From the NCBI RefSeq assembly GCF_004010195.1, contig NC_057735.1, positions 17,766,865 to 17,830,864 on the forward strand: a DNA stretch of 64,000 nt, given 5' to 3'. Within the stretch, counting starts at the first letter, position 1; the number at the start of each line of letters is the position of its first letter. A program made the position numbers and the translations under genes. Under the pieces are notes generated by a model, which was not told the DNA's origin, did no database searches, and saw nothing but the letters and a program-made list of their open reading frames with translations. Source of the DNA: Chiloscyllium plagiosum. Lineage: Eukaryota. Positions 2,908 through 46,214 of this stretch are shown piece by piece.

Positions 2908-2971
2908 ATGACAGTCATTTTGAAATGTGGGATATTATTATTGATTCTCTTTGACTGTCAGGCAAGTGACT
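2908..2971 (+). CDS. Gla gene A exon 1, signal peptide MTVILKCGILLLILFDCQASD
   Basis: Hydrophobic core; phase-1 GTAAGT donor at 2972; closely similar to 41861-41924; in-frame upstream ATGs at 2875/2878. Confidence 0.8.
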
Positions 2972-5012
2972 GTAAGTATCACCTTTTTTCATGAAAATTC
3001 TCTGACCAATCTGTTTCTCATGTTTTTACACACTATTCCAGAATGCCTTTATTACCCCAAATGTGCTAATGAGTCAATGCCTGGCTGAGAATTGCTCGTG
3101 ATCTCATTAATTTGCTGCCACTTTGACACCTGAACTAACTACGCATTACTGGGGCAATTAACAAACCTTTGGTCTTCATTCTGAACTGTGAACTGTCTGT
3201 GCCTCCTTCTCTGTGCATCATCTCCTGAGACATAGTTGTGATCAAGGAATGGGATAATTTTTTTTAAAATTACGTTTTCGTACATTAATGCTTTACAAAG
3301 TATATAACTATTCCTAACTTTATGCTAGAATATTCATATTCATTTCTAGTTAGGTAATTAGGCAATTAGAAAATGCATTTTGGAATGTTCAGTAGATATT
3401 TTAAACCTATGATCCAGGCAAAAACCAGCAGTCAAAATGCTCTAGGTTACGAACGACCTAAAGCTGCCCGGATTTAGCCTCAGAAATCTGAATGGATGAC
3501 CCGGCAGCCCACTTAGAGCAGCAGTGAATTTCATTCAATCAATATCAAACCCTATTCATCCATGGAGATTATAGGTGAATGTAGTCATCCACTTCTCAAT
3601 GTGGGTTTTCCACAGACCTGAGAGGAAAATGTTGTTGTGGCTTTTCTGATAGATGAAGTCAACGGAGAAGAGGATCATTGATCAGATGAGATCATCTTTA
3701 TTTTCCTTTATTTTCTATATTTCCTTTATGAGGCTGGAAGGTGAGCAAGCATTCCTCTGGACTCAAGGGAAGTTGAGGCCTGTCCTATCCCATGTTCCCT
3801 TCTTCTTCTGAAGAAGGCTCACTGGGCCTGAAATGTTATCCCTGATTTCTTTGCACAGATTCTGCCACACCTGTTGTGTTTTTACTGGAATTTCTGTTTT
3901 TGCTCACTACTCCTCCCAGAAATCACCCTTTCCAAACCTACATAATGTCAACTGCCAAACATAGGCTACCTGCTATTGTTCTGAGGGAACAGGTATGAGA
4001 TGTATGTGGCAACATATAATTGAGTTAAAATTACATGGGCCTCTTTTCATTTACAGCAGATTTTTAATTTGGCTGACCACCCAGCGACTAGAAACCAACC
4101 CAAAGTTAGAAGTTGGGCCTGAATATGTATGTTGTAGGTATCAGGCTGACATCAACGTGACTACAACCCATACAGAAAGCCATCTAAATTAAAAGGCCAT
4201 AATGCATGTCATTATGCATGAGATAAAAGATCACAGAACGTGCATCTGAAATTTTGTTACAAGGCTTGTGTTAAAAAAATACAGATTACGTTGTGGTTTG
4301 TGTTTACACGCACAAACATATCAATCTCCCCCATGCCCGTAAATGGATATAAGTTCTGTTTACTGGAAGATCTGTTACAGGATTAGTGAGCAGACAGATT
4401 TATTACAGAAGTTCACCAACTATTGTTAGAGCAAATCACCACTATGCTCATTCATACAATGTGCTGCAAGTTATATTGACATTGGCTGCTGGTCACATGT
4501 TCTATATCCTGACTACTTGTTCATTAGCATGTTCCCTTTTAAAGTGATATCATAACAGATTATGTTGGGTGTGAGTCTATTTGACAGGATTGTGTCTTTC
4601 TTAAATTTTGAAAATGTCTCCATGGCTAAGCAAACATGAATAACTAAATTACTACTGGTATACTTATTTTGTTAATTTTCCTTTATGAGCCAGAGTATTT
4701 TAGCATCAAAAGAATTTGAAAGGAACTTCAACAAAATCATTCCTCAATAGTTTGATAGATTCCAATGACAGTGTTATATCCTGGGAGATTTTAAACCAAG
4801 GTGTTAGCAAATCCAGTGAAACTCCAGCTTAGAATCTTGACTTTTGACATACTTCATACAAAAGAATTTGCATCTATAAGCATCCTTCAGAATTTCTGGA
4901 TATTGCAAAATGGTCCAATCTAACAGGATTAAAATTGGATAATATACCAATACAATGTTTTATATACATCGGCACCAGATTTATTATTACATGACTATTC
5001 AATATTATTGAG

Positions 5013-5149
5013 TGTTTTTACAGAAATCAGCTGCTGCACGGTTTTTGCCTCGATTTGAGTTTTTGAAAGGGAATCTGGAAAGGGAGTGCTGTGAAGAAAC
5101 CTGTTCCAAAGAAGAGGTCCGGGAGGTTTATGAAAATGACCAACCAACT
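5013..5149 (+). CDS. Gla gene A exon 2, propeptide+Gla (L)[45 protein letters not shown]
   Basis: GNLEREC-x-EE-x-C-xx-EE-x-RE Gla signature; carboxylase-recognition propeptide; phase-0 GTAAGG donor; acceptor is GAG. Confidence 0.88.
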
Positions 5150-5289
5150 GTAAGGACTCCACTTTAACCTTCATTTTTGCCTCTTGTCCCATGTTCATTT
5201 TCTCATTTTCATTCTTTCTCTGATCACATATCTGTAAAGATATAAGGTATTCAGGATAAAGGCTGGCTGCAAGATGAAATTTGACTAAT

Positions 5290-5440
5290 GCACCTAACCT
5301 ACACATCCCTGAACACTATAAGCAATTTAGCATGGCCAATCCACCTAACCTGCACATCTTTGGATTGCGGGAGGAAACCAAAGCACTGGGAGGAAACCCA
5401 TGCGAACACAGGGAGAATGTGCAAACTCCACACAGTTGCC
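5290..5440 (-). mobile_element. HE1-like SINE fragment
   Basis: Reverse complement of the SINE body at 6900-7030. Confidence 0.7.
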
Positions 5441-5930
5441 CACACAATGTGATTGTTTAAGTAGTTATTGTTGGATTGTGCACTCTATGGAGGGGTGATT
5501 CTGTCATTCAGTTGCAAAGTGAGAAGCTACGCTCACTGTGTGTCTTTCTCACTATATCAACAATGCACTGCCCTTGACATTCCATTGGTTTAAATCTAAT
5601 GGAAAGAAGATGGCTGCAGTGTCCCTATAAGTTCTACTGTGTTCCTGTTCGCACCAGACTGAAGAATCACTACTGTTGGAATATCCTCCTGTGACACAAA
5701 CACTTGTGTCTTTCCATTGTCTCAACTTCCTTTTTCTATCATCTCTTCTTAAGACGTTTTCCGTCCTTTGACTTGACTTCAATGTTGTGTATCCCATGTG
5801 ATATTCTTTGTGCGGTTAAATAATTATATAAATAGACATTGTTAACATGTTTTTTGGTGCAAATTATTTGTTTTATTTGTGATGTACATTTCTAATTCCT
5901 CTGGATTTAAAATCTCTCTTTTCTTTGCAG

Positions 5931-5961
5931 GAAATATTCTGGTACCTTTACATTCTCAAGA
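5931..5961 (+). CDS. Gla gene A exon 3, aromatic stack EIFWYLYILK
   Basis: ttttctttgcag acceptor; FWxxY motif; phase-1 GTATGT donor; 31 nt. Confidence 0.8.
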
Positions 5962-6229
5962 GTATGTATGATAGTCTTTGATTTGTTAATTTAACAGAAA
6001 AAACATGGATGTGGATATGCTAGAGAAACTGTGTGTCTCCCTCCCATTCAATGGATCTTGATATCCTATAGATATTTTTAATCAACCTCTTTAGATATGT
6101 TATGACACATTTTAGGACACTTTGGGACTTGAACCTAACCTTTTAGTCCACAGGTAGCGACTCCTTGCTTAGCTGTATGGACAGGAAAATTCTATTTTTA
6201 GGAACAATAGAGACAGCAACATAGATTCA

Positions 6230-6592
6230 TAGATTATAGAGTCATAGAGATGTATAGCATGGATACAGACCCTTCGGTCCAACATGACCATGCCAACCAG
6301 ATAACCTAACCTAATCTAGTCCCATTTGCCAGCACTTGGCTCATATCCCTCTAAACCCTTTTCAATTCATATATCCATCCAGATGTCTTTTAATTCTGTA
6401 ATTGTACCAGCCTCCACCACTTCCTCTGGCAGCTCATTTCATGCACACACCACCCTCTGGGTGAAAATATTGCCTCTTAGGTCCCTTTTATATCTTTCCC
6501 CTCTCACCCTAAACCAATGCCCTCTAGTCCTGGGCTCCCCCACCCCAGGGAAAAGACCTTGTCTATTTATCCTATCCATGCTCCTCATGATT
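6230..6592 (-). mobile_element. CR1 LINE 3' end
   Basis: RTRGHWFRVRGERYKRDLRGNIFTQRVV is a typical CR1 ORF2 C-terminus. Confidence 0.85.
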
Positions 6593-6821
6593 TTCTTTGC
6601 AGTCAAGAAATTTCCAGTGACTGTTCCCCCACAAGAAGAAAAGTCCAAAACTATTGACTTTTATAAAGCCTGCATTCTAACATTAACACACTGCAGGTGG
6701 CCTAAACAAAATGACAGTCAAGATTCCATCCCTCAGGGGGAGAAAGCCCATCCTCAAGAGTTGCAGGCCAATCTGATTGACCGCCAGCTCTGTCAGATCA
6801 AGTAGTGCCAGAACTACTTGT

Positions 6822-7135
6822 GGGCGGCATGGTGGCACAGTAGTTAGCACTGCTGCCTCACAGCGCCAGAGACCCGGGTTCAATTCCCGCCTCAGGCGAC
6901 TGACTGTGTGGAGTTTGCACGTTCTCCCCGTGTCTGTGTGGGTTTCCTCCGGGTGCTCCGGTTTCCTCCCACCATCCAAAGATGTGCAGGGTCAGGTGAA
7001 TTGGCCATACTAAATTGCCTGTAGTGTTAGGTAAGGGGTAAATGTAGGGGTAGGGGTGGGTTTCGCTTCGGCGGGTCGGTGTGGACTTGTTGGGCCGAAG
7101 GGCCTGTTTCCACACTGTAATCTAATCTAATCTAA
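6822..7135 (+). mobile_element. Full-length tRNA-derived HE1-like SINE
   Basis: A box tggcacagtag, B box ggttcaattcc, central 'gtggagtttgcacgttctccccgtgtct' domain, CR1-derived tail and (taatc)n. Confidence 0.85.
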
Positions 7136-7171
7136 TGTAAACTCAGTAATGGATGCTATTGGGACTGAAGA

Positions 7172-8105
7172 CATAGAACATAGAACATAGAACAGTATAG
7201 CACAGTACATGCCCTTCAGCCCTCAATATTGTGCCAGCCTTTTATCCTACTCTAAGATCAAACTAACCTACATACCCTTCATTGCACTATCTTCCATGTG
7301 CCTATCCAAGAGTCACTTAAATGTCCCTAATGTATCTGACTCTACTGCTGCTGGCAATGCATTCCACGCACCACCACTCTCTATATAAAGAACCTAGCTC
7401 TGACATCTCCCTTAAACCTTCCTCCAATTACCTTAAAGTTATGCCCCATCATGATAGACATTTCCTCCATGGGAAAAAGTCTCTGGCTATCCACTCTATC
7501 TATGCCTCATGACATCTTGTATACCTCTATCAAGTCACCTCTTATCCTTCTCCACTTTGGTGAGAAAAGCTATGCCCTCCAGGCCAGGCAGCATCCTGCT
7601 TAATCTCCTCTGCACTTTCTCGAAGTCCTCCATATCTTTCCTATAATGAGGTGACCAGAACTGAACACAATATTCCAAGTGTGGTCTAACCAGCGCTCTA
7701 TAGCGCTGCCGCATAACCTTGCGGCTCTTAAACTCAATCCCCCTGCTAATGAAAACCAACACACCATACACCCTATCAAGTTGGGTGGCAACTTTGAGGG
7801 ATCTATGGACATGGACCCCAAGATCCTCTGTTCCTTCACATTGCTAGGAATCCAGCCTTTAACTCTGTCTTCTACATTAAAATTTGACCTTCCAAAGTGA
7901 ATCACTTCACACTTTTCCAGATTAAACTCCATCCTCCACTATCAGTCCAGTTCTGCATACTGTCAATGTCCCATTGCAACTCCCAGCAGCCCTCCACACT
8001 ATCCACAACTCCACCAACCTTTGTGCCTTCAGCAAACCTACTAACCTACCCTTCCACTTCCTCATCCAAATCATTTATGAAAATCACAAAGAGCAAGGGT
8101 CCTGG
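7172..8105 (-). mobile_element. CR1 LINE RT 3' fragment
   Basis: MEFNLEKCEVIHFG and LVRPHLEYCVQFWSP motifs; (catagaa)n tail. Confidence 0.88.
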
Positions 8106-8699
8106 GGGAGACAATTTCAGGAAGATCATTGACATTGTTCAGAAGGACTTTTAGGATAAGATGAATAGTCCACCCTAGAAGGGTGTTGGGAGTGGGCATG
8201 TTTTGGATGTAAGTCAAGGAGGTAAAATCGTGGGTCTATGATCTTTCAGAGGGCTGTTCCAATTGCACCCAAGGATTCCAAATGATATATCCCTTTTCTT
8301 TCATTGTTAAAAAAGTCACAAAAATAGAAGTTTCTAGAAAATTTCAGCGGGTCTGGCAGCATCTGTGAAGAAAGATGAAAGGTAATTTTTCAGGTCCGAT
8401 GACTCTTCCTCAGAACTGGTCTCGAAACATTAACCCTGATTTCTCTTCACAGATGCTGCCAGACCTCCTGAGCTTTGCCAGCAACTTCTGTTTTGTTCCT
8501 GGTTTCAGCATCCACGGTTCTCCTATGCCTATCAATTCCCCAGAGTATTATGGAAGTGAAAGCTGATTAAGGTCTTTATGCTGACAACCATTGGCCACTT
8601 AAGACCTGCATTAGGCTGAAGGTTGAAAGTGTAGTTGGTAAAACACCCACCCTGCATTTGAGGGAACAGGTTGGGAGTTGAGGGACAGGAAAGCAAATA

Positions 8700-9790
8700 C
8701 TCAACATATTTTACATGCCCCTCCCTATATGCAAGTGCACCACCCTCTCCTTTTCCTTCAGGAGCTGAAGGACACTATGTGCTGCCCACTTCCTGATGGA
8801 CCTGTAGGCAAAGGTGTTTTTCTTTGTAAATTTCTCAACAAAGGACAGGTGATACAGGACGGTCCAACTCTTGAAGCATTCTGCGGCAACAAGGCCAGTC
8901 ACATCCTTTGCAACTCCGGGGTCAGGTAGAACCTCAGTATGTAGTGACACTTGGCGTTTTTGTACTGAGCGTCTATGCACAGCTTGATGCAGCCACACAC
9001 AAAGGTGGCCATCAGGATGAGGGTGGTGTTGTGTACATTCAATCCCCCCTTATTCAGAGCTTTGTACATGTTGCCTCTGTAGACACAGTGCATCTTAGAT
9101 TAGCAGATGATTGGGTCAGATTTGCAATACATACAACATTTGAGAAAATGCCTCATACCTGATGACCAGTTTTTTACCCAGAATAGAGAGGGTGTGGTGC
9201 TCCCAAAAGTACAATTTCTACCTCACCTTGGCAATGCGCTCCTCCCAAAACTTTGCACATACCAAGGCCACTCTGAACCATATTCCCAACCATACCTTTC
9301 AGGTAGTCTTTCCTGTTGGTGAAGGGGATAAAGAATCAATCAGCCCAGTTCCCAAAGAACATGACTTCGCTCTTGCCTCGATGTATCTTTGCTCCAGAAG
9401 CCAGTTCAAACTGGTCACAGATGTTTATGAGTCTGCGCACTGACAGCGGATCTGAGCAGAAAACAGTGACAAGAGAGGCTTTCACCTGAAGGTGTCCGCT
9501 GTCTGGAATAGTCGCCCCTCTCAGATTCATTGAGACTACACTAATCATTTTGGTGTACAACAGTTGGATCCAAATGCGGATTCCCTCCCCGAAGCTCATT
9601 TTGGACAGTGGATCCCACATGTAGGTGTGTGAAATCTTGTCAAAGGCCTCCTCCCAGTCCTGGCTGATGAGGCAGCAATCCAACACCGCCCCCTCACATC
9701 CCCTCCCCTCCGCCCCCGCCCTACATGTATGCGATCGTATCCCTGAGAAGCGCGTGACTGTCAGAGATCATTCTTCCTGGTACAATCTTT
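8700..9790 (-). mobile_element. L1/Tx1-clade LINE RT fragment
   Basis: EAFDKISHTYMW and FELASGAKIHRGKSEVMF motifs; frameshifted. Confidence 0.75.
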
Positions 9791-10158
9791 GAATCATCAT
9801 TACAGTGAGAACAATGTTAAATTGCAGTATGAGCTTTTGGAGTAATGGCTTTGCATATCATAGTTTAGAAAAGTGGTCTTTTGACTCATATGATCTTTAA
9901 AACATTTGAAATAACAAGAAACATAGAGACAGCTTCTAATACACAATGGCAATGAGATACAATCCCTAGGCTGCATTGTTGTTATTTTGGATATGAGTTT
10001 GTAAAATTTTAATTTCAGTATCTGCATACTTGGTTTATTTCTACATCTGCTTATGTTATATCACAACTAAATTTTCACATGATTGCAAACTTGTGCTAAT
10101 GACAAGTTTATACTAATTTGTCTTTGGTCTGAGTAACATGAAGTTCTGATTATTTCAG

Positions 10159-10314
10159 AGAATTCAAATCTAAAACACATTCTGGATAATGCAGCGGAAA
10201 TTCTTGAAGAGCAAATGAAAATTAATGAACTTAGAAAGGAGCTCACTGGAAAGAAACAAGAAATCAATGATTTAAAAGAACAACTCTTAGGAAAGTTAGA
10301 AAGTTGTATCGATG
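10159..10314 (+). CDS. Gla gene A exon 4, coiled coil (K)NSNLKHILDNAAEILEEQMKINELRKELTGKKQEINDLKEQLLGKLESCID
   Basis: ttatttcag acceptor; symmetric phase 1-1, 156 nt, open frame; I/L heptads; homologous to 32728-32912. Confidence 0.78.
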
Positions 10315-10488
10315 GTAAATAATAGGAAAGACATTTTACTTTACTTGTTATATTCTGCTAAGGCTGAATCAAACTATGAAGTTTATGTTAAATTTGTAAT
10401 GTTAAACTTCTTGATCAATAATGCTAATGTATGAATGATAAATGACATAAACTGAATGTAGTTTGGGCCTGTTTCATTTGTCTTTTAG

Positions 10489-10520
10489 GAGCTGTGCCTT
10501 CAGGTATTATTGTAGTTTGA
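10489..10520 (+). CDS. Gla gene A probable terminal exon (G)AVPSGIIVV*
   Basis: tttgtcttttag acceptor 174 nt after exon 4; in phase; AATAAA at 10573-10578. Alternative: exon 4 reads through to TAA at 10320-10322. Confidence 0.5.
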
Positions 10521-13309
10521 ATCTAAAATTTCACGTATGAAATATCAAAAAATGCTGTGTTGATAAATTTCTAATAAATTAGCTTCTAGTCACACTTTTA
10601 CTTGAGAGTTCCAGTTTGAATGTAATATAAACAAATCATTTTTTTGTGTTTTATCTTAACATGTATTACTGACCTCTGAATATTTGATATTTCTGAATCA
10701 ATTTGAATAGAAATGGGATTTGTCCAAATACTTTATGAAAAGAACATTTGAGGTGTTCAGAACCTTCTTCAAATATGAATGTTGCCAATTCTCAAAAGCT
10801 CCATAATTAACGATAGGCAACATTGTGTAGTATACATTATTATTTAAAAACACTGATTCAAATCGGTTGCCAAGTTTATTCCGCCATTATGTGTCAGCCT
10901 GATCTCAGTGATAGTATCATCACCTCTGAGTCAAGAGGTTGTATGTTGAAGAACTATTACAAAGTCTTGAGGATGTAGTCTCGTCTGACACTTGGAGGAT
11001 GATGGGTAAGTCTCATTATTGCTAATGAGCAGCATATGTCATTAGTGATGCTGACACACTTGGTGCTAGGACAGAGCCTGCAATGGTGTACAAAATCTCT
11101 CTCCTTCCTACTTGTGTATATGGTGTAATTAGTAAATAATATTGGTATTCCACAATATAAGGACATACATGTCACTCTCTTCACTCTTAATCTTCATCAG
11201 TCCAATTATTTGGTCCAAGAAGATGGAATTCCAGGGTAAAAGTCCAGAATTCCATTGCAACACAAAGACTAATAGATTGTGCAAAAGCTGTACGCTCTCT
11301 ACAACCAGTCACACTCACTATCCAGCAGGTGTTCCTGTACAGCTTATAAATTCAACGTTAAGGTAGAATCAGTTGTTAGCCAGACACCTATCTCACTTCT
11401 CTCTCCAACATTAGTAAGATCTCACAACGACACTATAGTGCAGCACCAAGGGAATGATATGCTCAGAGGAGCCATCTTTTGGAAGAGAAATTAAAGTGAG
11501 ACCTGGCCTGTCCAATTAGGTGAAATAGCATCATTTTGAAAGTTCTCCCAATGTCTGGGCCAATATATATCCTTCATTTGAGCTCATTAGAGCAGATTAT
11601 TCAGCCATTACATCATCGTCAGTTATGGCAATTCATTGTTACAAAATGGTGCCAAGATTTTTGCATTACAACATTCAGGATACAAAGTAATTCTGTGGCT
11701 GTAAAGGCATTTTGGGACCTCCTGAGGTGATAAAAGACTTTATCTTTCAATCCTTCCACCTTCCATCAATTTTACCGGCACTCAGACATCATCTTAGCTT
11801 CCTACTTCATAAAACGTATTTTGTAAGATCTGAGTATCACTGGCCAGGCCAGCATTTGTTGCCCATCTTTGCAAATGTGGTGGTGACCCACCTTGTTGAA
11901 CTGCAGCAGTCCATCTGGTACAGGGACATTCACTATGCTATTAGGAAGGGAGTTCCAGGATTTTGATCCCTGTGAAGGGATGGTGATAAATTTCCATGTT
12001 GGAATGGTATGCACCTTGCTGGGGAACTTGTTTATTTCATCTGCTGCCCTTCTCTGACCATACAATAGAGGTTGCAGGTTCGGATGATTGTTTTAAAGGA
12101 TCCTTGGTGAGTCCCTGTAATGTATCTTGTTTGGCACAAACAATGCTGCTACTTTGCATTGTGGTGGAAAAAAAGAGAATATTTAAGTTAGTGTATTGAG
12201 GTGTCTTTGAGCTACTTTGATCTGGATGGCATGAATTTTCCTGTAAATCTTTGGAACCACATTCATCCATGCACTTGAAGAGTATTCCATCACACTCCTG
12301 ACTTGTTGCTTTTAATGTGCATCTGCATTTTTGCTAATGATGATTTGTGAGTAAAGTTGCAGTGGATTAAATCCATCTCCAAGACAAATTCTGAAAATTG
12401 ATCGCCACTCCCTTGCCCATGCTCAGCATCTCAACTGCACATCTCTAACTGAATCTTCCCAGATGCTAAGCATCCTTTTAGTCAAGTTTCACATTAGGTT
12501 TCTTTCTGTAATGCTTAGCACATTTTGTCACACAATCTTCCCAAAATCACCTCATTAATTACCCACCACACCCCTGTGGTGCATCTTTCACCTGATGCTA
12601 ACCCAATTCTCCCAAATTACTACAACCAGATCTATTTGCCACCACCAGAATACCCCAGAACCTCTGATGTTGGCGTCATTTTTAGAAGCCTGTTATCCAT
12701 CCAGTCAAGTACTGTCAGCCAGAACCAACTTCCTTGGTTGGGACATTTGCCCCTCAATATGACAGATAAGGGGATATTGATGTCATGATCTGCATCTTCC
12801 AGGTGAACTGATCTGAAGGGTGTTTCATGGGCTTGACTGAAAACTACTTCCCTTCAACTTTGACAATTGGCCAATTGGAATGCTCACAGTGTGCTCACTG
12901 CATAAGCTGCAGTGGTGAATTTGACATGGCATGGTACCATACAGCAAGATGTCCCTCCCTCATGTCCACCTCTTGACTGATTATTGTTGTCGGCCATGAC
13001 AAGCTGCATTACTTTGTGCCTGCACTGAGAAATCAAGGCCAGGCAGAAGTACTGTGAGCCTCTTAACTCTTGCTGAGGAGGGGAAACTACAAAATGGCAA
13101 GACAAAGCAGGGATGCTAGAAGCAACTGTGTGGATGCAAAGAGAGCAAGTGCTGAGAGAGCAAGTAAGCAGCCCTGAGACGCAGCATGGTTGAAGCAGTG
13201 AGCTGGGTGCCTGCTGAAGCACACCACAGTGTCAATGTAACAGCATTGCACTGATAAGTTCAGTGCACCTCAGAATGCAGCATTAAAGTGCATAAGTGGA
13301 TCAGAGACA

Positions 13310-22469: not shown

Positions 22470-22542
22470 ATGAACATGAATATTATTTTGAAGTATGAGA
22501 CAATCTTTTTGTTTCTCTTTTGGTCCTCTCAAGTGAACTGCA
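22470..22542 (+). CDS. Gla gene B exon 1, signal peptide MNMNIILKYETIFLFLFWSSQVNC
   Basis: Aligns with gene A/C signal peptides (ILK...LF..Q); phase-1 GTAAGT donor at 22543. Confidence 0.75.
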
Positions 22543-23699
22543 GTAAGTAATTGTAATCATAACTCAAAATATAATGAGGCGATCTCTTAAACGCGGGACT
22601 TCTTTTACAAATCTCGCTAGTAATTGATTAATTAAAAGTAGTGCTGATATTAATTTTTGGTGTTGCTGATATGGCATATGACAAATATAACTATAACGTT
22701 CAGTTAACTTATGCAGTTCTAAAATGACTGTGCAGTAAGCAGGTCTAAAGCTGAAGGAAAATTATACTTCACATTTCACACAGACAGTCAATGTAGTTAG
22801 GTGACTAACATGGGACGATCGTATGAGAAAGAAAATAGTAAAGAGGAAAGTAATTCGTGAAAATAAGGTTTCCAGTCATTCTGATGCTCCATTTTGAACT
22901 ATACAAGATGTGACATTCACACGTTTTCCATTTTCTTTACCTAATTGGAGAAGTAATCTCATATCACTCTCAGTTATACCGGTTCTGGTTATATAGAGAC
23001 AAAATAGTGTTTAAAAAGTTCCTAGGTCATGCAAATAATTTAATAATATCATAAATAAAGCTACTCTCCCTGATGATGTTTATTTAGAAAAGGTATTCAG
23101 CTCTATTTTTCATTATCAGTGAATGAGGAGGAATGACTTTATAATTTGGGCCTCACACCTCTCTATCTGATTGGTACTAGACACAAACTAGTATACCTCT
23201 GGGACAATACCCCAAAAGACTTGGCCATCTGCCCTGCATTTTCAGAAAAACTGAGTATCAAATGAATTGTTTAGATACTTACTGAAGACTCATTTTGCTC
23301 AACGGCACCTAAATAAGATTTCAAGTGACAATACTTATGCTGAAATCATAATCTGTGTCCAGGAGCATCTGGGAACTGATTGCTTTTGATGGTTCTCAGG
23401 TTTTCTGAAGTCAGAAGTGGCAACTTGTTATCTGGTGACAGCTTTGCCGTAAGTGACAGCAGTAAATGCACATTTAAATTTAGTCATGGTACAGCAGGAT
23501 TAAGTTCTCTGTTAACATTATTTTCACTGGGACTTGTTTCATACTGGCCGTTAGAGAACCTAGGGATATGGAGATAGAGCAAAATAATGGAATTGAGGAA
23601 AAATGAAGTGAACCATCATGCTAATTTGTTGTCAGTCAGGCCTGTATTCTTGTTCCTATTTCATATAATCTTATGAAGGCCTAACCATGTTAGTTACAG

Positions 23700-25140
23700 A
23701 ACATTATCGGAACAATCCTGAGTCATGTGGCACCTGTGTTCAGTGGGCAATTATTTCTCAAAGAGGTAGAGATTACTTAAGGATAGTCAGTATGGCTGTG
23801 TTGGGTGAGATCATGTATAACAAATTTGATTGAATTTTTTGAGGAGTTTACTAGGTGTATAGATGAGGATAGTGCAGTTGACGTAGTCTATGTTGATGTT
23901 AGTAAGGCTTTTCACAAGGTTTCACATTGGTAGACTGGTTAAGAAGCTAAGAACCCATGGAATCCAGGGCAATTTGGCAAATTTGATCCAAAATTGGCTT
24001 AAGGTGATGGTTAATGAATAGTTTTGTTACTGGAAGCCTGTGTCCAGTGGTGTACCACAGGATTCATTGCCTAGGCCCTTGCTGTTTGCTATGTGCATTA
24101 GTAATATAGACCTGAATGTAGGAGTTATTATCAGTAATTTTTGCAGAGAATTGTTAGTGTGGTAAATAGTGAGAAGGAAAGCCTTAGACGAAAGATATCA
24201 TCGATGGGCTGAACAGTGACAATTAGGACTAATGCTGAAAAGTGTGAGATGATGCATTTTGGAAGGATGAACAAGGAAAGTGAATAAACGTTGAATGGTA
24301 GGACCTTAGGAAATACAGAGGATTGGCGTGACCTTGATGTGGATGCCCATAGACTTTTGAAGGCAGTAGGTCAGGTAAATAAAGGTCACGTTAAGAAGAC
24401 ATATGGGATATTTGCATTTATTAGTCAAGGCATTGATGCAGGAGCAAGGAGGTTATGATGAAGCTGCCTAGAATATTGACTAGGCCACAGCTAAAACACT
24501 GTGTGCAATTGTGGCCGCCTAACCCATAGGATGGATGTGATTGAACAGGCAGAGGTGCAGAGGAGATTCATCAGGATGTTAGAGTGATTCATCTCTGAAG
24601 TGAGATAGGCTGGGACTGTTTTCCTTAGGGGAGAAAGTGAGGACTGCAGATGCTGGAGATCAGAGCTGAAAATGTGTTGCTGGAAAAGCGCAGCAGGTCA
24701 AGCAGCATCCAAGGAACAGGAGAATCGACGTTTCGGGCATAAGCCCTTCTTCAGGAATGTTTTCCTTAGAGCAGACAAGGCTGAGTGGGGAACCTGACTG
24801 AGGTGTACAAGATTATGAGGGATTTTGATAAGGAAGGTAGGGAGAAATCTTTCTCCTTAGCACAAGATTAATGACAAGGAGACACATTTTTAAAAGGGAG
24901 CAGGAGGTTTAGGTGGTTCTGAGGAGAAATCTTTTCAGCCAGAGGTTATCAGAAGCTCACTGCCTGGAAGGGTGATAGAAGCAAGAACCCTCATAACATT
25001 TAAGAACTATTTAGATAAGCACTTGAAACATCATGGCACAGAATGCCTTGGACCAAGTGCTGGAAAATGGGATCAAAATAGATAGACACATGATGACCAT
25101 TGCTGAAGGGCCACTTCCCACTCTGTAAAAACTCTATAAC
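23700..25140 (+). mobile_element. Degenerate CR1 LINE RT
   Basis: [21 protein letters not shown] motifs with stops and frameshifts. Confidence 0.8.
24629..24757 (-). mobile_element. Penelope pLTR-derived short insertion nested in CR1
   Basis: 12-bp TSD tgttttccttag at 24617-24628 and 24758-24769; minus strand reads CTGAAGA-aGGGC ttat GCCC-GAAACGTC. Confidence 0.8.
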
Positions 25141-25233
25141 TCTGCAATTAAATTATTGCTAGAAACAGCAAAAGAAAGACTTTTTTCATGTGTGTTATGT
25201 GGATAAAGGTACTCTTAACCCACTATGATTTAG

Positions 25234-25394
25234 TGTTTTTGCAGAAATCACTTGCCAACACCTTCCTTTCCCGGATCCGGAGGGCTAATGACGGCCTGGA
25301 GGAACTACTACTTGATAATATGGAAAGAGAATGCTGTGAAGAAAAGTGTTTGCCAGAAGAGACTCAAGAGGTTTTGAGAAATTCTCCAAAACCT
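25234..25394 (+). CDS. Gla gene B exon 2, propeptide+Gla (M)FLQKSLANTFLSRIRR/ANDGLEELLLDNMERECCEEKCLPEETQEVLRNSPKP
   Basis: TAG acceptor; RIRR/AN furin site; Glu at 6,7,14,16,19,20,25,26,29; phase-0 GTAAGG donor. Confidence 0.9.
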
Positions 25395-27556
25395 GTAAGG
25401 ATTGCATCTAAAGCAATTCAATCTTAACAGCTGCTCAGCAGTATGAGTGGTCTAAAATGGGATTAGTATTTGACACTTAACACCCATTTCATTGGCAACA
25501 TGTAGAATATTATTGCCCAAACTAGCTGCTCAAAAGCATAATTACAGGTTACTTCCAGTGAAGCCTAGCCTACTTAACATGATTAATAACTGTAACTTTT
25601 GTAATGTAGCTCATCCTAATTCCATATTATAGCATCTAATAGTTCCTCATGACCCTCTTCTTCACTCCCACACCCTCTCATAATTGACACTAACAGAGTG
25701 TTCACCTGATCTGACTCAGGAACCTAGTTACCTGACAGTTGTTGTGCCAATAACAACAACCTGACTTGCCTTTGTATTTGACATACTTCTCAAAATTCAG
25801 GCTGAAATAACTCCACAGATGTTGGTATCTTCATCACCAAGTCACCCTTTATTTAACATGTGGAAAGTCCTTGTCCCTGGCACAGCCTTATCAGAGTCAG
25901 TACCCAGAGTAAGAGAATTCTGACCCTCTTCTTTTCATCTGTCAGCCAGAGCTCCCTGATTGGACAAAATCAATAGTCCCAATCAAGGAACTCATATTCT
26001 ATGAGGTCCAGCTGGCCGGCCTCATTACAATCACTACACAGGCCCAATTAATTTAGAAGATTCAGGACCACGTCCAGGTAGAAAGGGGAAGACAGGTTAT
26101 GATTTGACATTCTCAGAGTGTTCAAATAGACTGCACTCCTAAATTTCAAGACCATAAACAAAGGAAGATGAAGATTCCAGTAAACATGCCAATATTTCTA
26201 TTTATAAAGTCAGAGTCTGAAAGTTACTATTGACAATATTAATAAACAAATGTGTGATATGTTAGCATAAATCCCTTTCTATTGCGTTTCAACCGAGGCA
26301 TCAACCATTTAAAGCAAACTGATTATACTAAATTAAAGAAGTCCGCAGAGAAACTTTAAATGTTAATATACATGTTAATGTCTTATTGTAATATTTGTAG
26401 CTTAGTTACATGACGATTCAGGAACATAAACATAACTGCAATCTTACTGTCATCATATTTATTTATGTTTTAAATGTTTTTAATATATTTCGTAATGGTG
26501 GGCATCTTTAATTGACATTTGCTCCTAATAACCCAGTGCTGGACCACTTATCTCTTACAACAGATCCATATGTGGAGTTGATTCATAAGAGAGGCTTACA
26601 GTATATATGAGGACAATTTTATAAATTCAATGAAATATGTACACCACTCACACTTATTGAGAAATTCTAGAGCAAGAGTTGTTGATGGTGAAACCATTGG
26701 GCTGAATTTTCTCAGTCTCTTAATGATGAGGCAATGATGGGAAGTTTGGGAAATACAACAAAAGTGAAAAGTTGAAATTCTGGATGTTGAGAAAACAGGG
26801 TCCAATTTTTCACTTGAGGTTTCATAGCAAGTTGAGAATCTTGCTCATGAAAAGTGAGGGGCCTATTGAATGCATTAATGAGCATTAACATTTAATTATT
26901 TTCTAATCTCATCTCATTTTTGTGCAAGTTGTTTTTTCCCAGTTGTCAGGGAGAAGTTAGACAGTGCCACTTCCCAATTTAAAGGACCTGGTAGCTGCAG
27001 TTCACAAGCACCTTCACCTTCTTGGCAGCATTCCCTCAGCATGCTCCTTGGGCAGCAACCATCTGAACCTTCTGTCCATGGAAGTCAGCAATCACTTCAT
27101 CACTTCACCATGGCACAGCCTTAACTAATTTACAATATGGTTCAGCGTTTAAATACAGCACTTTGGAGTTCACTGACAAATTTTGCTCCAATGCAGCTGC
27201 CATGTCATTTTGTGCACAGGGAATAGGTTGCGTACTATGGCTAATAAATTGCTTTCTGAAGCAATTGTGCATACTTTATGAGGTGATCAGTGTAAAATTG
27301 AGTGAGAAAAGTTTCTATGCCTCACAAAGAATGACTCTCTGTGAAATGCCCCAAAATTGATACTTAGCCAAATCTAACATTGAAGGGATCTGTACTGTGC
27401 TGTAATGGAAATTCAGCCTATTGTTTTCAAGTATGTGGAATTAATCAGTAGGACTCCAAAATAATACTGCTCATTTGTAACATCCCTCCTATTATTGTTG
27501 AGAAGCATGTGTCTATTTGTGTGCTGCACGAACTAAGCTAAGATTTGTTTTTGCAG

Positions 27557-27581
27557 GAACAAACTTGGATTACGCCCAATG
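27557..27581 (+). CDS. Gla gene B exon 3, degenerate aromatic stack EQTWITPN
   Basis: ttgtttttgcag acceptor; 25 nt as in F7/F9/F10 exon; Trp retained; GTATGT donor. Confidence 0.75.
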
Positions 27582-28947
27582 GTATGTTTTTTTAAAAAAT
27601 CAATTTGATCCATAGATTATGCTTTGAGTACGTTTATTATTGTTTATCCTGCACTAAAACAACAGGCAGTGAAAATTTATACAAACACATTTAAATATTC
27701 ATATTTAGTACTAACTGTCACACTGCTTGAATTTAACCCATTTGGAATTATTAGTGAGGAGACAATTAATGCAGTTATGGATTGGCACCAAAAGCCGGCC
27801 ATGTCCATATTCGATGAAAGAATCATGAACTAGTGCTGGATTTCAAAATGGCTTGTAAAATGAGGAGATGATCTCTGATGCCTTTCTATAGGTTATGGTA
27901 CATAAGACAGCCTGAATATGGACAGAGCAAGAACAAATTCAATAGCATAACTAAGAGGTTTGATGGGATGTTAGTGGCAGAATGTGTTAGCAAAGACATG
28001 GCAGAAAACATATCCATAAACTCGCCAGTCAGGACCGGTCAATTCTGGCCCTTCATGCCCATCTCTTGAAGTGTAACTGCACTTGCAGGACCTTAAAATT
28101 AAGGCCACAACAACCCATTACAAGCATCTTATAAATATTGACAGAGAAGCATGTGATCTTGCTGATATTCAAAATCACAAATTAGCATTCCGTTGATCCC
28201 TAAAATGACTTAGGTTTACAAATTGCACTTCCAAGTACATGTAGCAGATATTACTTACATATTGGAATGGGATCACCTTTTTTTGCTGTTGCTGTGTAAA
28301 AATAATGGAACTTTCTTCCTATCAACGCTGTGGATACACCTGCCTGCCAACCATGCATGGAGTATAGTCAGATAAGAAGGTAAGTGATTATCACATCTTC
28401 AAAGACAATTAGCGATGAGCAATAAATGCTGGAAAAGCCAGTGATATCCACATTCCACAATCAAATAAATAAAATAAATCCTGTCAGAGAACCTTTTCTG
28501 AAATTCCTTCCTTCCAACTGAACAAAATATGCTTTGTCCATCCGCATTAAAGATATAATGATGGATCATGGGGAAATGTTCCTTGCTATGTTGCAGATAT
28601 AGTGTTTATATTTCTCATAGTTTAATGAGTCTCTCCAGGTTGAAAATTGTTTGTTTGTAATTCTTTCACCAGAATGTAATATGAGCAAAGTGCAAAGTAT
28701 TGGAAAGTGGAGCTTCTAAAAGATTATTATTAATCATATGTGGAGTTAAAGAGGGTTGGTTGCCATTTTATACAGATACAGCCTGTAATTGTCATATTTT
28801 GCATGACATCTTATACTAACCCCAATTTGCATTGCATGAATAGTGTAATGATTTCTATGTTTTTTACTTACTGTAAAGATAAACTTGTTAAAAAAATTTA
28901 GCTGAAATTACAATGTCCCTTTAACACAAAGTGTCTTTTTTGTACAG

Positions 28948-28983
28948 GCAGCGTTAGACCTCTCCCCTGTTTTCTGAGCCAAT
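28948..28983 (+). CDS. Gla gene B probable exon 4, linker (G)SVRPLPCFLSQ
   Basis: cttttttgtacag acceptor; GTAAGT donor; 36 nt, phase 1-1. Confidence 0.55.
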
Positions 28984-29039
28984 GTAAGTTTGTAATACAA
29001 TTCACAAATCACATAAATCTATGATTGAAAAACACGATT

Positions 29040-30365
29040 CAGATTGCTGGGCCTCTTGCTGAGATATTTGATAGTCACAGCTGAGGTGCCGGAAGACTGA
29101 AGGTTGGCAAACGTGGTGTCACTGTTTAAGAAGGGTGGTAAAATCAAGCCAGGGAACTATAGACCAGTGAGCCTGATCTCGGTGGTGGGCAAGTTGTTGG
29201 AGGGAATCCTGACGGACAGGATGTACATGTATTTGGAAAGGCAAGGACTGATTCGGGATAGTCAACATGGCTTTGTGTGTGGGAAATCATGTCTCACAAA
29301 CTTGATTGAGTTTTTTGAAGAAGTAACAAAGAAGATTGATGAGGGCAGAGCAGTAGATGTGATCCATATGGACTTCAGTAAGGCGTTTGACTCGGTTCCC
29401 CATGGGAGACTGATTAGCAAGGTTAGATCTCATGGAATACAAGGAGAACTAGCCACTTGGATACAGAACTGGCTCAAAGATAGAAGACAGAGGGTGGGGG
29501 TGGAGGATTGTTCTTCAGACTGGAGGCCTGTGACCAGTGGAGTGCCACAAGGATCGGTGCTGGGCCCTCTAATTTTTGTCATTTACATAAATGATTTGGA
29601 TGTGAGCATAAGAGGTACAGTTAGTAAGATTGCAGATGACACCAAAGTTGGAGGTGTAGTGGACAGCAAAGAGGGTTACCTCAGATTACAGCAGGATCTG
29701 GACCATGGGCCAATGGGCTGAGAAGTGGCAGATTGAGTTTAATTCAGATAAATGCAAGGTGCTGCATCTTGGGAAAGAAAATCTTAGCAGGACTTATACA
29801 CTTAATGGTAAGGTCCTAGAGAGTGTTGCTGAACAAAGAGACCTTGCAGGTTCATAGCTCCTTGAAAGTGGAGTTGCAGGTAGATAGGATAGTGAAGAAG
29901 GCATTTGGTATGCATTCATTTATTAGTCAGAGTATTGAGTACAGGAGTTGGGAGGTCATGTTGCAGCTGCACAGAACATTAGTTCAGGCACTGTTGGAAT
30001 ATTGCGAGCAATTCTTGTCTCCTTCCTATTGGAAGGAGGTTGTGAAACTTGAAAGGGTTCAGAAAAGATTTACAAGGGTGTTGCCAGATAGGTTTAGGGT
30101 GAGAGGGGAAAGATATAAAAGAGACCTAAGGGGCAACTGTTTCACACAGAGGGTGGTACGTGTATGGAATGAGCTGCCAGAGGATGTGGTGGAAGCTGGT
30201 GCAATTGCAACATTTAAGAGGCATTTGGATGGGTATATTAAATGGGAAGGGTTTGGATGGATATGGGCCGGATGCTGGCAGGTGGGACTAGGTTGGGTTG
30301 GGATATCTGGTCGGCATGGACCGAAGGGTCTGTTTCCATGCTGTACATCTCTATGACTCTATGAC
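29040..30365 (+). mobile_element. CR1 LINE (HER1-like) RT, 5'-truncated
   Basis: [37 protein letters not shown] motifs; (ctatga)n tail. Confidence 0.92.
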
Positions 30366-31719
30366 TAAATGGAATTGTTGATTTTTCTTGGAAGTAAGAT
30401 AAACACAATAGCTGAGTAACATAAATATCATAAATATCATTATGGTACAAAAGCACTGTAATGAAATAATTTGAGTAGTTATGATAGATTACCTACTACT
30501 TTTCAGGGATATTGGCCCTAAAATATAGCCACAAAGCAGGAAGCAAACCTGGCTGACAGATCTATTAGCCAGAAAACGTGTTTCTCATGAGGGTGGATAC
30601 AATTTAAGTTTTTGTCAAATTAATTTGCCAGCTGAATTAGGAGCTGTTGGGTGGAGGGGTGGGGAGGAAGAGGAGATGGGGACGGCTAGGGATTGGAGTG
30701 AACATGAGTCAGATGTGATGCTAGGGGTGAAGTCAAACATCAAAAGGGATAGGAGTTGAAAATCTTGGAAGGCGAGGTCAGTGGTGGAGGTGAATGGGGA
30801 GGGGGTAACATCACCAATTCAATTATATGGGGCAAGGAGCCCAACAACTAGATACTGGAAGGGTCCCAACCCTGTCTTTAAATGTGAATGCACTAATCAC
30901 GTAGGAGATGAGCTTGGAACCCAGTTAGTGATACCAAGTTTGGCCAGGAGCTGCCAGCAATGCACAAGCAACAAAGGCAAATGGCAACAATGTTAGGACC
31001 TGCTTTTGCCTTGCAAAGGAGAGAAGACTGCTCTTCTCTGAGGGCTAGCAGCCTCATTAAGAATAAAGCTGACCAAAAGCCAAATATAAGGTCAAACACA
31101 TGAAATGGTGCCCGATCTTACAGCTTCTGAAGATCTCTAAAATTAAAAAAATAGATTATTTTCTTCTGCCTTTGAACAGAAACGATGTGCACTAATGTTC
31201 ATTAGTCTATACAGATTCAGCAGATTCAAATTTGAGTACTTGCTTCTGGCCTACCTGACCTGTTAAGAAGTGCCTCAGGGAGCTTAGTGGGCTGTTAACT
31301 GGAGGCAAATTGCTTCCCCATTGCCCTCCCACCTCCTGTCCTCCCATTGAAAATTGTATTGTGCTTCAGAAGAGGTAACATCCAGTGTCACACTCCAGGA
31401 ACTTAATTTTCAAATTATGCATCCCCTTGACCTTCAGCTTCACTGGTAGTTGAAAACCCTGTGACATTTCATCTAGGAATCATTGAGAAGATGGGAATTT
31501 AATTTTAATTTTCTGGCAGTGATACTGCTGACACCTCCAGCTGATATTCAGCTGATTCAAAATAGCGTTGAGTTCAAGCTCAGGACTTACCTGGGTTACC
31601 GTCCCTCCTGTGGGGCTAATTATTTGCGCTGCTATTTCAGAACACATTCTCTATGTCTTGTTGGTCTGTCTGGAGAGCACATGGTACATTTCACAGTCCA
31701 AAGACTCTAACAGAGTGAA

Positions 31720-32440
31720 GTGCAGTGGGATTTGTGAGAGCATTCTTGTGCATGAAACAAGAAAAGTTAGCATGAGATGTAGCAAGTAATTAAGAAGGCA
31801 AGTGGAATTTTGACTTTTATTGTTGGGGTGGGGTGGTTTGCATTTTAAAATAAAACTGTACAAAATGTTGGTGAGGTCCCATTGGAACATTGCGTACAGC
31901 TTTGGTCCCCGTATTTTAGAAAGGATATATTGGCTTTGAAGGCAGTTCAAAACAGATTCACAAGGCTGATTCCTTGGATGGAAGGGTTGACTTATCAAGA
32001 ATGGATAAACAGGTTAGGCCTTTATTCATTAGACTTTAGAAGAAGGAGGGGTGATTTATGGAAACATACAAGATTCTGCAGCAGTTTGACAAGGTAGATG
32101 TTGAGAAGATGTCTTCACTAGTGTTACATAGTTATTAAATAAGGGGACACTCATTTAAAGCAGAGATGCAAAGGGATTCCTTCTTCCAGAAGTGAATGCC
32201 TTGAATTCTTTACCCCAAAGACCTGTGGAACCAAGAAAACTGAAATTGTTTAAATGCGATGTGTATGTATTTAATATGTTTAGATATATTCCCAATTTGG
32301 ATTTAGTGGGAAGTTGAGGGTTATGAGGAAATGGCACAAAAGAGTGGTTGAAGTCTGAGGCAAATCAGCAAATGATCTTATAGAATGGTGGGACAGGCTT
32401 GAGGCACCAAATAGCTACTCCAGCTCTTACTTCTTATAAT
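31720..32440 (+). mobile_element. Degenerate CR1 3' fragment
   Basis: EHCVQLWSPYFRKDI, RFTRLIP motifs. Confidence 0.8.
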
Positions 32441-32727
32441 CTTATTTCAAGAGACATTTACTTCTTATTCCATCTGCCTTTGTTTATTGTTTGTGAGTTA
32501 ACTTGGAAATATCCTCAAATTTTAACTATTCAAGCACTATCCTGATGATAATTGTAAATAAATGAATTTTTACAAGCAGAAAACAATATTGCCTTGTCAT
32601 GGAATATGTTATAAGAAACACAATCACAATTTTAATTTAAACATTGTGAACTTGAATTAGCTTAATACATATTCTAATCCTGCATTAAAATGGCATTGTT
32701 GTTTAAACTCTTCTTTCTTGTTCATAG

Positions 32728-32912
32728 CACGCTGTGCAAAGGACAATCTGAAAGAGGTCTATTCCATAGGAAAGAAAATCTTTGAAAAACAAAAGGAAGT
32801 TGTCTATCTTCATCAGCAACTGATCCATCGCAAGTCGTACATTTTGTACCGGATGAGCAATCTATTTCAAAGCATAGAACGTTTGGTTTGGTTGATATCA
32901 GATCAGCTTTAA
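32728..32912 (+). CDS. Gla gene B terminal exon, coiled coil (S)RCAKDNLKEVYSIGKKIFEKQKEVVYLHQQLIHRKSYILYRMSNLFQSIERLVWLISDQL*
   Basis: ttctttcttgttcatag acceptor, phase 1; heptads align without gaps to gene A exon 4; AATAAA at 33007-33012. Confidence 0.72.
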
Positions 32913-41860: not shown

Positions 41861-41924
41861 ATGACAGTAATTTTGAGCTACGGGATAATATCATTGCTTC
41901 TCTTTGGCTGTCAAGCAAATGACT
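41861..41924 (+). CDS. Gla gene C exon 1, signal peptide MTVILSYGIISLLLFGCQAND
   Basis: aaaATGa start; hydrophobic core; phase-1 GTAAGT donor. Confidence 0.82.
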
Positions 41925-42828
41925 GTAAGTATCAATGTTTACCACAGTATCAATGTTTCTCAGGATAATTCTTCACAGAGTCTGATTTTAGACATAGACC
42001 CCTTGTTCCCTCCGTTGCTCCCATATACAGTGCTGAGTTAGTCCCTGTCTGACAATATGTTGATGATCTGATTTGTTCTCTACCACTTTGACTTTTGTAT
42101 CCACTGCCCACTGACTGTCGGTGATTGCCACACTCAATTTAATATGTTCAGTTATAGCCGCCTAGTCTGTGACTTTTTATTTCATATTTTGTTGTATGTT
42201 AAGGGTTTTTCCACAGGGTGTGGATTTTTCACTTTAACGTATTAATCTTTTTTACAAACTAAGTGCTTATTTTCTACAGATGGACTGGAATAAACAACCC
42301 TCAGGTCTTCATTCTCAATCATGAATTATCTGTTTCTCCTCTTCGTACCATCCCTTCAGACACAGTTGAGATCAAGGAATGTGATCATAATACTGTTTCT
42401 TAAAAAATAAATTTTTGTGTAAGTGCATTTACGTTTTGTGTAAAAACATTAATGAATACAAAATATTCATACACCTTTTGCTGGTTTTATGTGGCATGAT
42501 AGTACTGATATTTTGAGTGGTTTCCATTAAGGTAATTGGATTATGACATTTAGATTGGAAAAATGGCAGTTTTAATGCTATCCACTGGGTGTAAACTGGA
42601 GTGATATGTAGTTAAAATATCCCTGATTATTTATCCATACTAGAGCTAGTCACAATTTTGACTCAAGCTTCAGAAAGGGTGCTAAGCAGCCCAGACAAAT
42701 GCACAGGGTCCTCACTGACATGTTCAGACTACAGGTGAAATAAGTCATCCACCTCTGACTGTTAATTTTCTCCCTGGCCTGAGTAAGTGAGATACTGTGG
42801 CTCTTTCGCCAGGTAAATATTCAAGTGA

Positions 42829-42954
42829 AAAATGTGTTGCATAAGCCCGAAACGTCGATTCTCCTGCTCCTTGGATGCTGCCTGACCTGTTGCGCTTTTC
42901 CAGCAACACATTTTTCAGCTCTGATCTCCAGCATCTGCAGTCCTCACTTTCTCC
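42829..42954 (+). mobile_element. Penelope pLTR-derived short insertion
   Basis: 14-bp TSD aaatattcaagtga at 42815-42828 and 42955-42968. Confidence 0.8.
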
Positions 42955-43918
42955 AAATATTCAAGTGAGAAGAGGATCATGGATCAGATGAGCCCACTTT
43001 TATTTTCTTTATGAGGTTGGGAGGACTGCAAAGGTTCCTCTGGGCTCAAGGCAGGTTGAATTCTCTCTTGCTCCGGGCTCCCTCCTTCTTCTGTCCTTTG
43101 AGATCCTCCTAGAATTTCTCTTGATATATGTCCTTGACTGCCAGCAGTCAACCATGGATCACTTCCTGAACAAAAGCAGAAAATTCTGCTGTGAAGAAAA
43201 GTCATATTAAAAAGTTAACTCTGACAGATCTGCTGAGTGTCTCCAAAATTTTCTGGTTTTGTTTCAAATTTCCAGCACCTGCTTTTATATGGGCCACTAC
43301 TTTCTGCAGAAATAGGTGTGAAGTGGATCTGATAGCCTATTCATGAGTTAAAATTGCTGGGGCCTTTTTTTTCTCTAATAGCGACTTACAGTCTACCTGC
43401 TAGCAACTGCCCCCTAATTAAAACCAGAGCTTGGACGTATGAATGATTCCAGTCCATCTGCTAAGAGCAAATACTTGGTTTATTAAAGAGAAAAAAATTT
43501 TAAAGTGAAACTTCCACACCACACAGAAAAAAATTAACACACAATAAAATATGAAATAAAAGGTCACAGACCAAGCTGCTACAGTGAAACAGATTATACT
43601 GAATGTGGCAATGTTTGACAAGATTGTGGAGAAAATGCTTACTTGTGTTTTTTTTTAATTTGAAACTATCTCTGCAGCTGAGCAAGGCTAAATAATTATC
43701 AATTTACTTACTATAGGATTTAACCACATCAGGCCACAGTACTTTAGCTCAAATAATTTTTGAATGATTTTGCAAAATTCATCCCTTAATATTTTGACAA
43801 ACTTCTGTGGCTGGTCTATTTCCTGGGAAATTTAAAACCAGCAACTCCAGTAAAATTCCAGCTTAGAGTCTTGACTCTTATACTTCAAAGAAATGAAAAA
43901 ACTTGCATCTATTGAGTA

Positions 43919-44130
43919 AGGAAATGTGTTGCTGGAAAAGCGCAGCAGGTCAGGCAGCATCCAGGGAACAGGAGAATCGACGTTTCGGGCATAAGCCCTT
44001 CTTCAGGAAGAAGGGCTTATGCCCGAAACATCGATTCTCCTGTTCCCTGGATGCTGCCTGACCTGCTGCGCTTTTCCAGCAACACATTTCCAGCTCTGAT
44101 CTCCAGCATCTGCAGACCTCACTTTCTCCT
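43919..44130. mobile_element. Palindromic Penelope pLTR insertion
   Basis: 85-bp inverted arms 43920-44004 and 44007-44091; 13-bp TSD catctattgagta. Confidence 0.85.
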
Positions 44131-44271
44131 CATCTATTGAGTATGTTTTGCAACTTCAAACTATTACAACAGACACTTCACACAACAATATTATCATGGT
44201 ACAATAAAATATCACATAAAATCTACACAGGCACCTGATTTATTATTGCATTATTATTCAAAAATATGGAG

Positions 44272-46183: not shown

Positions 46184-46214
<31 letters not shown>

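Follow-up and report, generated by a model that had tools for sequence, protein, structure and literature searches.

The 64,000-nucleotide stretch of the Chiloscyllium plagiosum genome considered here (contig NC_057735.1 of assembly GCF_004010195.1, positions 17,766,865 to 17,830,864 of the forward strand; hereafter the window) carries three Gla exons, at about 5.1, 25.3 and 44.4 kb, and a fourth lies about 7 kb before it. The first of the three belongs to gene A, a plus-strand gene that joins a Gla domain to a predicted coiled coil. Exon 1 (2908..2971, ending in phase 1) encodes a predicted signal peptide, judged by eye; exon 2 (5013..5149) encodes a propeptide with the docking residues F-16, A-10 and L-6 together with the Gla core; exon 3 (5931..5961, phase 0 to 1) encodes the aromatic stack and is 31 nt long, versus 25 nt in the neighbouring genes B and C; and the coding part of exon 4 (10159..10322, stop included) encodes a heptad helix of about 50 residues with a conserved Cys. 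The exons have GT-AG ends, phases 1, 0 and 1 and a single open frame; a GT donor closes exon 3, and a phase-1 AG acceptor at 10159 opens the helix exon. The product read from the ATG at 2908 is identical to the RefSeq protein XP_043572568.1 (P0001) of C. plagiosum, and an in-frame ATG at 2875 is the start of the RefSeq model. It is almost certain that a spliced Gla + helix gene exists. The protein matched the Pfam Gla profile at 57.9 bits (cut-off 27), and no EGF or trypsin Pfam match was found before the stop at 10320-10322; RefSeq labels it ‘venom prothrombin activator oscutarin-C catalytic subunit-like’ despite the absence of a protease. Judged from the sequence, its charged 58-residue tail, which has a single hydrophobic stripe, is not a membrane span.

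An alternative acceptor for exon 2 at 5024 was rejected, as it gives an in-frame stop after exon 1; the acceptor at 5013 was used, as in RefSeq. The site in use is a weak GAG, 11 nt before a stronger-looking, frame-breaking CAG (5013/5024, and 44272/44283 in gene C). Four models, namely P0024 and P0030 (start ‘MTK’), P0029 and the short isoform P0005, resemble products of the second acceptor. It is possible that this frame-breaking site acts as a built-in off switch.

The preliminary description of the locus had given the helix exon as a phase 1-1 exon of 156 nt, spliced from 10314 to a last exon at 10489 and ending the gene at 10520. The phase-1 start and the GT after 10314 are indeed there; the exit in phase 1 is not supported, and the exon is almost certainly terminal. 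Past 10314 the frame continues for two codons and then reads TAA TAG. The same double stop is found in the paralogue A0, a close duplicate of gene A (RefSeq XP_043572566.1; G000:C26:17755928-17765447, just upstream of the window), which has no AG at the position corresponding to the acceptor of the implied exon. In 12 of the 15 aligned models of the family, exactly four residues follow the conserved Cys, against 1, 5 and 11 in the remaining three; at the position where a phase-1 GT needs Gly, Ser, Arg or Cys, four of the 12 carry Asp or Thr. Because the double stop is shared with A0, the acceptor is absent there and most of the models have a common endpoint, the helix exon is read as terminal, with the coding sequence most likely ending at 10322. 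The implied exon 10489..10520 (+), which is also not in P0001, was therefore rejected and is probably 3′ untranslated region. The first AATAAA after the stop (10573..10578, +) is a candidate poly(A) signal of gene A.

The helix exon sits after exon 3, in phase 1, where gene C has EGF1, and the earlier proposal that it replaces EGF1 is thereby borne out. The junction 5961/10159 rests on the conservation of gene models; a sequencing-run search with the helix exon listed no RNA holder. One might suspect that the helix exon is foreign to the Gla gene and that the join is an annotation artefact, as a 4.2-kb intron with repeats separates the two parts, and the join is seen in models, not reads, all from one common automated pipeline. 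However, the same in-phase join occurs in models of 13 species, and three times inside this cluster, which makes an artefact highly improbable.

Gla + helix models were found in 13 shark and ray species among the matches listed: C. plagiosum and C. punctatum (two models each), Rhincodon, Stegostoma, Cetorhinus, Mustelus, Heterodontus, Heptranchias, Pristis, Hemitrygon, two Mobula species and Hypanus. These matches came from several searches, one of them a listing of 120 of 230 matches limited to 52-265 residues. No chimaera or bony-vertebrate helix member was among them, which is weak evidence from a word-based search. A helix-only profile recovered 16 of 122 proteins at an expectation value (E) of 4e-20 or better, namely the 15 that built it and one isoform. 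It also matched Amblyraja P0025 and Scyliorhinus P0026 at about 3e-4, and nothing else among the 122 proteins fell below E 0.19. These two resemble gene B, and two helix subfamilies probably predate the split between sharks and rays. The alignment of 15 left out both of them, the isoform P0005, and P0009 and P0021, which have no helix; the tails of the latter pair (RefSeq, Mustelus and Mobula) look like an out-of-frame EGF exon.

The preliminary statement that no vertebrate Gla + coiled-coil protein is known holds in the literature searched; such proteins are, however, already present in RefSeq as misnamed models, called after clotting factors (‘factor X-like’, ‘venom prothrombin activator-like’). 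The literature search, which did not reach subscription journals and supplements, returned no description of a Gla + helix family. In the accessible text of two comparative papers on clotting-factor domains (PMC9643190, PMC9669250), neither the word ‘coiled’ nor such an architecture appears, and the former sampled a single cartilaginous fish, a chimaera. Gla + coiled coil is an unrecognised architecture inside a known domain family, and the proteins that share it are a family, not a one-off. The nearest counter-example would be GRP/UCMA, a secreted protein of cartilage that has numerous Gla residues and a coiled-coil segment and is not known to contain the PF00594 domain; the literature searched gave no text on its coiled coil. 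The vertebrate vitamin K-dependent proteins form a short, well-studied list, which the Gla + helix family lengthens. As a caution, such models should not count as clotting factors in studies of sharks.

In the helix, read in the open frame of exon 4, the residues spaced seven apart are I, I, I, L, I, L, as described earlier, and the Cys is next in the series. Of 20,000 shuffles, 0.35% attained a run of six aliphatic residues at i+7 and 0.33% attained the heptad moment. AlphaFold2 gave one helix (residues 91-140), with block values of the predicted local distance difference test (pLDDT) of 76-97 over residues 101-140, and the Pristis model gave a concordant helix. A fold search with the latter had no match at E 0.001, and its rows 1-15 were Gla-containing chains. 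In the alignment of 15, the main heptad position was hydrophobic in 104/105 cells, the +3 position in 32/90 and the +4 position in 31/103. Gene A combines the long helix and heptad periodicity that define a coiled coil with a weak second core position. It is unlikely that the helix instead stays monomeric, as an amphipathic segment that attaches to lipid particles or to a different protein without self-association. The narrow hydrophobic stripe and the many charged residues at would-be core positions suit such a segment, but the periodicity peaks at 103-104 degrees, which is coiled-coil-like, with a value of about 0.6 against 1.09 at 100 degrees. Moreover, the conserved Cys would be unpaired in three species.

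This Cys lies near the helix end, four residues before the terminus, and is kept in 14/15 proteins. In three species the chain from the propeptide onwards contains three Cys, so that one has no partner; this leftover is the single end Cys, which would suit an even number of chains. The middle of the helix reads Ile at a and Leu at d, which is a dimer-type pattern; at both ends the reverse reading is possible. Natural trimers can break the design rule for trimeric coiled coils. According to the accessible text of PMC12186253, that rule places Ile at both a and d. Ile/Val occupied 50/105 cells at the main heptad position and 7/90 and 1/103 at the candidate partner positions, so that only one core position is filled by them and the trimer hinted at by the beta-branched residues fails the sequence rule. 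A three-copy complex prediction of residues 86-142, run without an alignment, scored 0.02 against a mark of 0.32 and speaks neither for nor against a trimer. On sequence grounds, the dimer appears ahead of other oligomer states for the gene A helix.

The origin of the helix exon was also sought. Pfam gave only sub-threshold generic coiled-coil matches on the helix. When the genome was searched for a donor with the A exon, the B exon and a Heterodontus protein, the helix matched nowhere but in this cluster, and the coiled-coil exons of the minus-strand gene downstream gave no match to the helix profile. An Atlas search with the helix found no usable feature match, only unrelated helices.

In the Gla half, the residues F-16/A-10/L-6 are present in gene A and in 13/13 complete members (2 of the 15 rows are partial). 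The accessible text of PMC12647623 states that carboxylase binding is mediated by these propeptide residues. Gene A keeps 8/8 core Glu, both Gla cysteines and the FW aromatic stack. Compared with A0 and C, its exon 2 lacks 27 nt, and it has neither the RRAN cleavage site nor the EE loop at the N-terminus. In the C. punctatum orthologue, the deletion has a different length and one core Glu is lost. RRxN and the EE loop are intact in 7/15 aligned members and also in genes B and C; helix-type proteins with an intact Gla start are those of the rays, Mustelus and Cetorhinus, and gene B. An extra Cys adjoins the first Gla Cys in gene A and occurs there in all six carpet-shark helix-type proteins and gene B, but in 0/10 EGF-type proteins.

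The loss follows the linker between the two domains. RRxN..EE is missing from all 7 assessable members with a long linker (Cys63 to Ile110, 47 residues) and is retained in all 7 whose linker is shorter, although these rows are related by descent and do not represent 14 independent events. Stegostoma, with a long linker, keeps RRAN and not EE, and P0003 is partial. Because loss tracks linker length, the uncleaved form is read as a subtype (Heptranchias, Heterodontus, carpet sharks) rather than the decay of one copy. According to the accessible text of PMC8911121, failure to cleave the propeptide of factor IX disrupts both its Gla fold and its binding to phospholipids. As RRAN and the EE loop are gone, clotting-type membrane binding by gene A is unlikely. 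The preliminary view of an oligomeric membrane or mineral binder survives in so far as a secreted Gla + coiled-coil protein without a protease is concerned; its membrane part is doubtful for gene A.

For the same reason, it is improbable that gene A encodes a trimeric binder of phosphatidylserine membranes with a multivalent clotting-factor-like head. The heptad periodicity is present, 7/15 members have intact Gla starts, and at both ends of the helix a reading with Ile as d and additional hydrophobic residues at e is possible, which would point to three or four chains. However, gene A has neither RRAN nor EE, Ile/Val fill one core position only, and one conserved Cys per chain would not pair evenly among three chains.

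The coagulation factors X, IX and VII and proteins C and Z show signal, propeptide + Gla and aromatic-stack exons in the same order, as listed for exons 1-3 of F9 in the accessible text of PMC8911121. The best solved-structure relatives were factor X (E 2e-24) and factor IX (E 5e-21), and in all 45 solved-structure matches the best-scoring stretch ended by profile position 96 of 139. Unlike these factors, which run Gla-EGF-EGF-protease, gene A has no EGF, protease, furin site or EE loop. PRRG1-4 likewise are small, lack catalytic activity and have a helix behind their Gla domain, and they were the nearest Atlas clusters, all under the lead bar of 0.9; their helix, however, spans the membrane and is followed by a cytoplasmic tail, whereas that of gene A is charged, amphipathic and protein-terminal. 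Matrix Gla protein (MGP) and osteocalcin resemble gene A in working principle only, being small, secreted, non-enzymatic and vitamin K-dependent. MGP carries a central propeptide, and MGP and osteocalcin have no sequence homology with the Gla-domain factors (PMC12647623, accessible text). MGP keeps its propeptide, as predicted for gene A, and the osteocalcin/MGP Pfam did not match gene A at E 0.1. In the complex of protein S with C4b-binding protein, the Gla head sits on an oligomer whose chains are joined through a Cys-linked helix at the C-terminus; this arrangement involves two separate proteins. The oligomerisation domain of C4b-binding protein was considered and rejected, as no C4bp_oligo match was found in the genome, where the control was silent too, nor on the helix.

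Taken together, we tentatively favour, with somewhat less than even confidence, the reading that A is a secreted, gamma-carboxylated, propeptide-retaining, helix-oligomerised and non-catalytic multivalent binder of calcium-rich or mineral surfaces. The docking residues F-16, A-10 and L-6 suggest that the protein would be carboxylated. Without furin release, A would have no free N-terminus and no membrane-inserting loop, and its remaining Glu-rich helices could present a row of Gla residues, like MGP with its kept propeptide. The helix would multiply weak binding through avidity, and the single conserved Cys near its end may link chains, most likely as a disulfide-linked dimer. A would then favour mineral over membrane, a choice of ligand that we infer, while the intact-Gla relatives (rays, Mustelus, Cetorhinus, gene B) may coat phosphatidylserine membranes without enzyme activity.

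Several observations weigh against this reading. None of the analyses separates mineral from protein ligands, the support is sequence-based, and all relatives are predicted gene models. The Gla part of the AlphaFold model of gene A is unreliable (pLDDT <50 for residues 1-63 and 66-80). With a second core position only about one-third hydrophobic (32/90), a homo-oligomer may be weak or need a partner. Gene A has four Cys from the propeptide on, and the two extras could pair within the chain. Some long-linker members have lost core Glu, Heptranchias keeping 5/8 and A0 6/8. Lastly, the helix exon has a ratio of non-synonymous to synonymous substitution rates (dN/dS) of 0.65 between A and A0 (6 synonymous and 17 non-synonymous changes), which indicates weak constraint.

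Alternatively, the helix may be a pairing module through which A, A0 and B, or another secreted coiled-coil protein, hetero-oligomerise, and A, its Gla start disabled, would blunt or tune how intact partners bind membranes. Three helix-bearing paralogues adjoin, B keeps RRAN and EE, and the polar residues Gln107, Lys121 and Lys134 beside the core are kept in 13, 14 and 14 of 15 proteins, as specificity positions would be. The B helix, however, is 26% identical to that of A and is without the end Cys, and this pairing is considered possible but rather doubtful.

The low constraint on the helix exon raises the further question of whether gene A is a recent duplicate under relaxed selection that is heading to a pseudogene, with the family function in the intact members. 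Besides the dN/dS of 0.65, exon 1 has 7 non-synonymous and 0 synonymous changes between A and A0, exon 2 has its 27-nt deletion and the C. punctatum orthologue carries a deletion of another length and has lost one core Glu. The substitution counts behind all these ratios are small. The last 40 helix codons gave a dN/dS of 0.35, and the Gla core gave 0.23-0.32 between paralogues (25 codons; A vs A0 0.23), where the non-coding flanks of A and A0 differ by 0.20-0.25 per site. Decay is very unlikely, however, as neither A, A0 nor the C. punctatum counterparts have a stop or frameshift, the deletions in exon 2 are in frame and leave the docking residues and the core untouched, and the uncleaved subtype spans distant shark lineages. 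The retention of frame, heptad and end point across 13 species appears to be a stronger sign of function than dN/dS.

The front ends of these genes do not follow their tails. In trees of signal, propeptide and Gla, the helix-type and EGF-type proteins of one lineage cluster together, with support of 99/95 and 100/96 for the Mustelus grouping and 99/99 for rays + Scyliorhinus (first tree). A single clade of all ten EGF-type front ends was rejected, with a log-likelihood 104 lower and an approximately unbiased test value (p-AU) of 8e-73. These trees rest on 75 columns, with most forks unresolved and two long-branch rows uncertain. Exon 2 of gene A is identical to that of C at 117/137 positions vs 101/137 for A0, whereas its flanks are 82% and 80% identical to A0 vs 71% and 59% to C. 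Because front ends group by lineage rather than by tail, the simplest reading is that front-end exons have been exchanged by gene conversion; faster change in A0 could add to the pattern.

A broader proposal can be made with considerable reserve and seems doubtful at present: a vitamin K-dependent class specific to sharks and rays, in which a tandem cluster swaps Gla fronts, through gene conversion, onto coiled-coil or EGF tails and thereby would yield cleaved, phosphatidylserine-masking oligomers and uncleaved, mineral-binding ones. The family would offer a natural test of a Gla domain made multivalent or left uncleaved. Its intact members are prospective natural multivalent probes for phosphatidylserine, and the uncleaved members, with a functional value that is likewise prospective, bear on the control of mineralisation in elasmobranchs. 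Under this proposal, the uncleaved form would be a clotting-type Gla domain turned into an MGP-like regulator of calcified cartilage, teeth or denticles.

The plus-strand order at the locus is an IRF gene (about 47 kb upstream), A0, A, B, C and a DUF4504 gene, followed by minus-strand coiled-coil exons. Exon 2 of A0 has its full length, but other residues stand in place of RRAN and EE, and two of the core Glu have gone. Gene B (22470..32912, +) is a divergent paralogue with an open frame and GT-AG sites that keeps RRAN and EE; its exons lie at 22470-22542, 25234-25394, 27557-27581, 28948-28983 and 32728-32912, the last encoding the divergent helix, which was the third best of 6083 frames with the helix profile (E 0.012). 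The mini-exon 28948-28983 (36 nt, phase 1-1, one Cys) resembles a stretch of Scyliorhinus P0026, and Amblyraja P0025 has a longer linker rich in Ser/Thr/Gly/Pro before its helix.

Gene C (41861..53955, +) encodes a Gla-EGF-EGF protein with an intact Gla domain, a stop and no protease, from exons 41861-41924, 44272-44435, 45502-45526, 48505-48618 and 53825-53955. Ten shark and ray relatives were found (P0010, P0018-P0020, P0022, P0023, P0027-P0030). Ray genomes have several copies of this type each, and in some (P0027, P0028) the Gla start is shortened; in the literature searched this architecture was likewise not found described. The DUF4504 gene (61457..62272, +; Pfam PF14953, E 6e-73) is the downstream neighbour of the cluster and is presumably C1orf74. 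We take the upstream IRF gene to be IRF6 and the downstream minus-strand coiled-coil gene, whose exons lie at about window-equivalent 79,800-93,300, to be probably TRAF3IP3. In human, the order is presumably IRF6, C1orf74, TRAF3IP3, and IRF6 and C1orf74 are not known to have a Gla gene between them. A 23-nt tandem repeat is present in four copies (13304-13396) between genes A and B.

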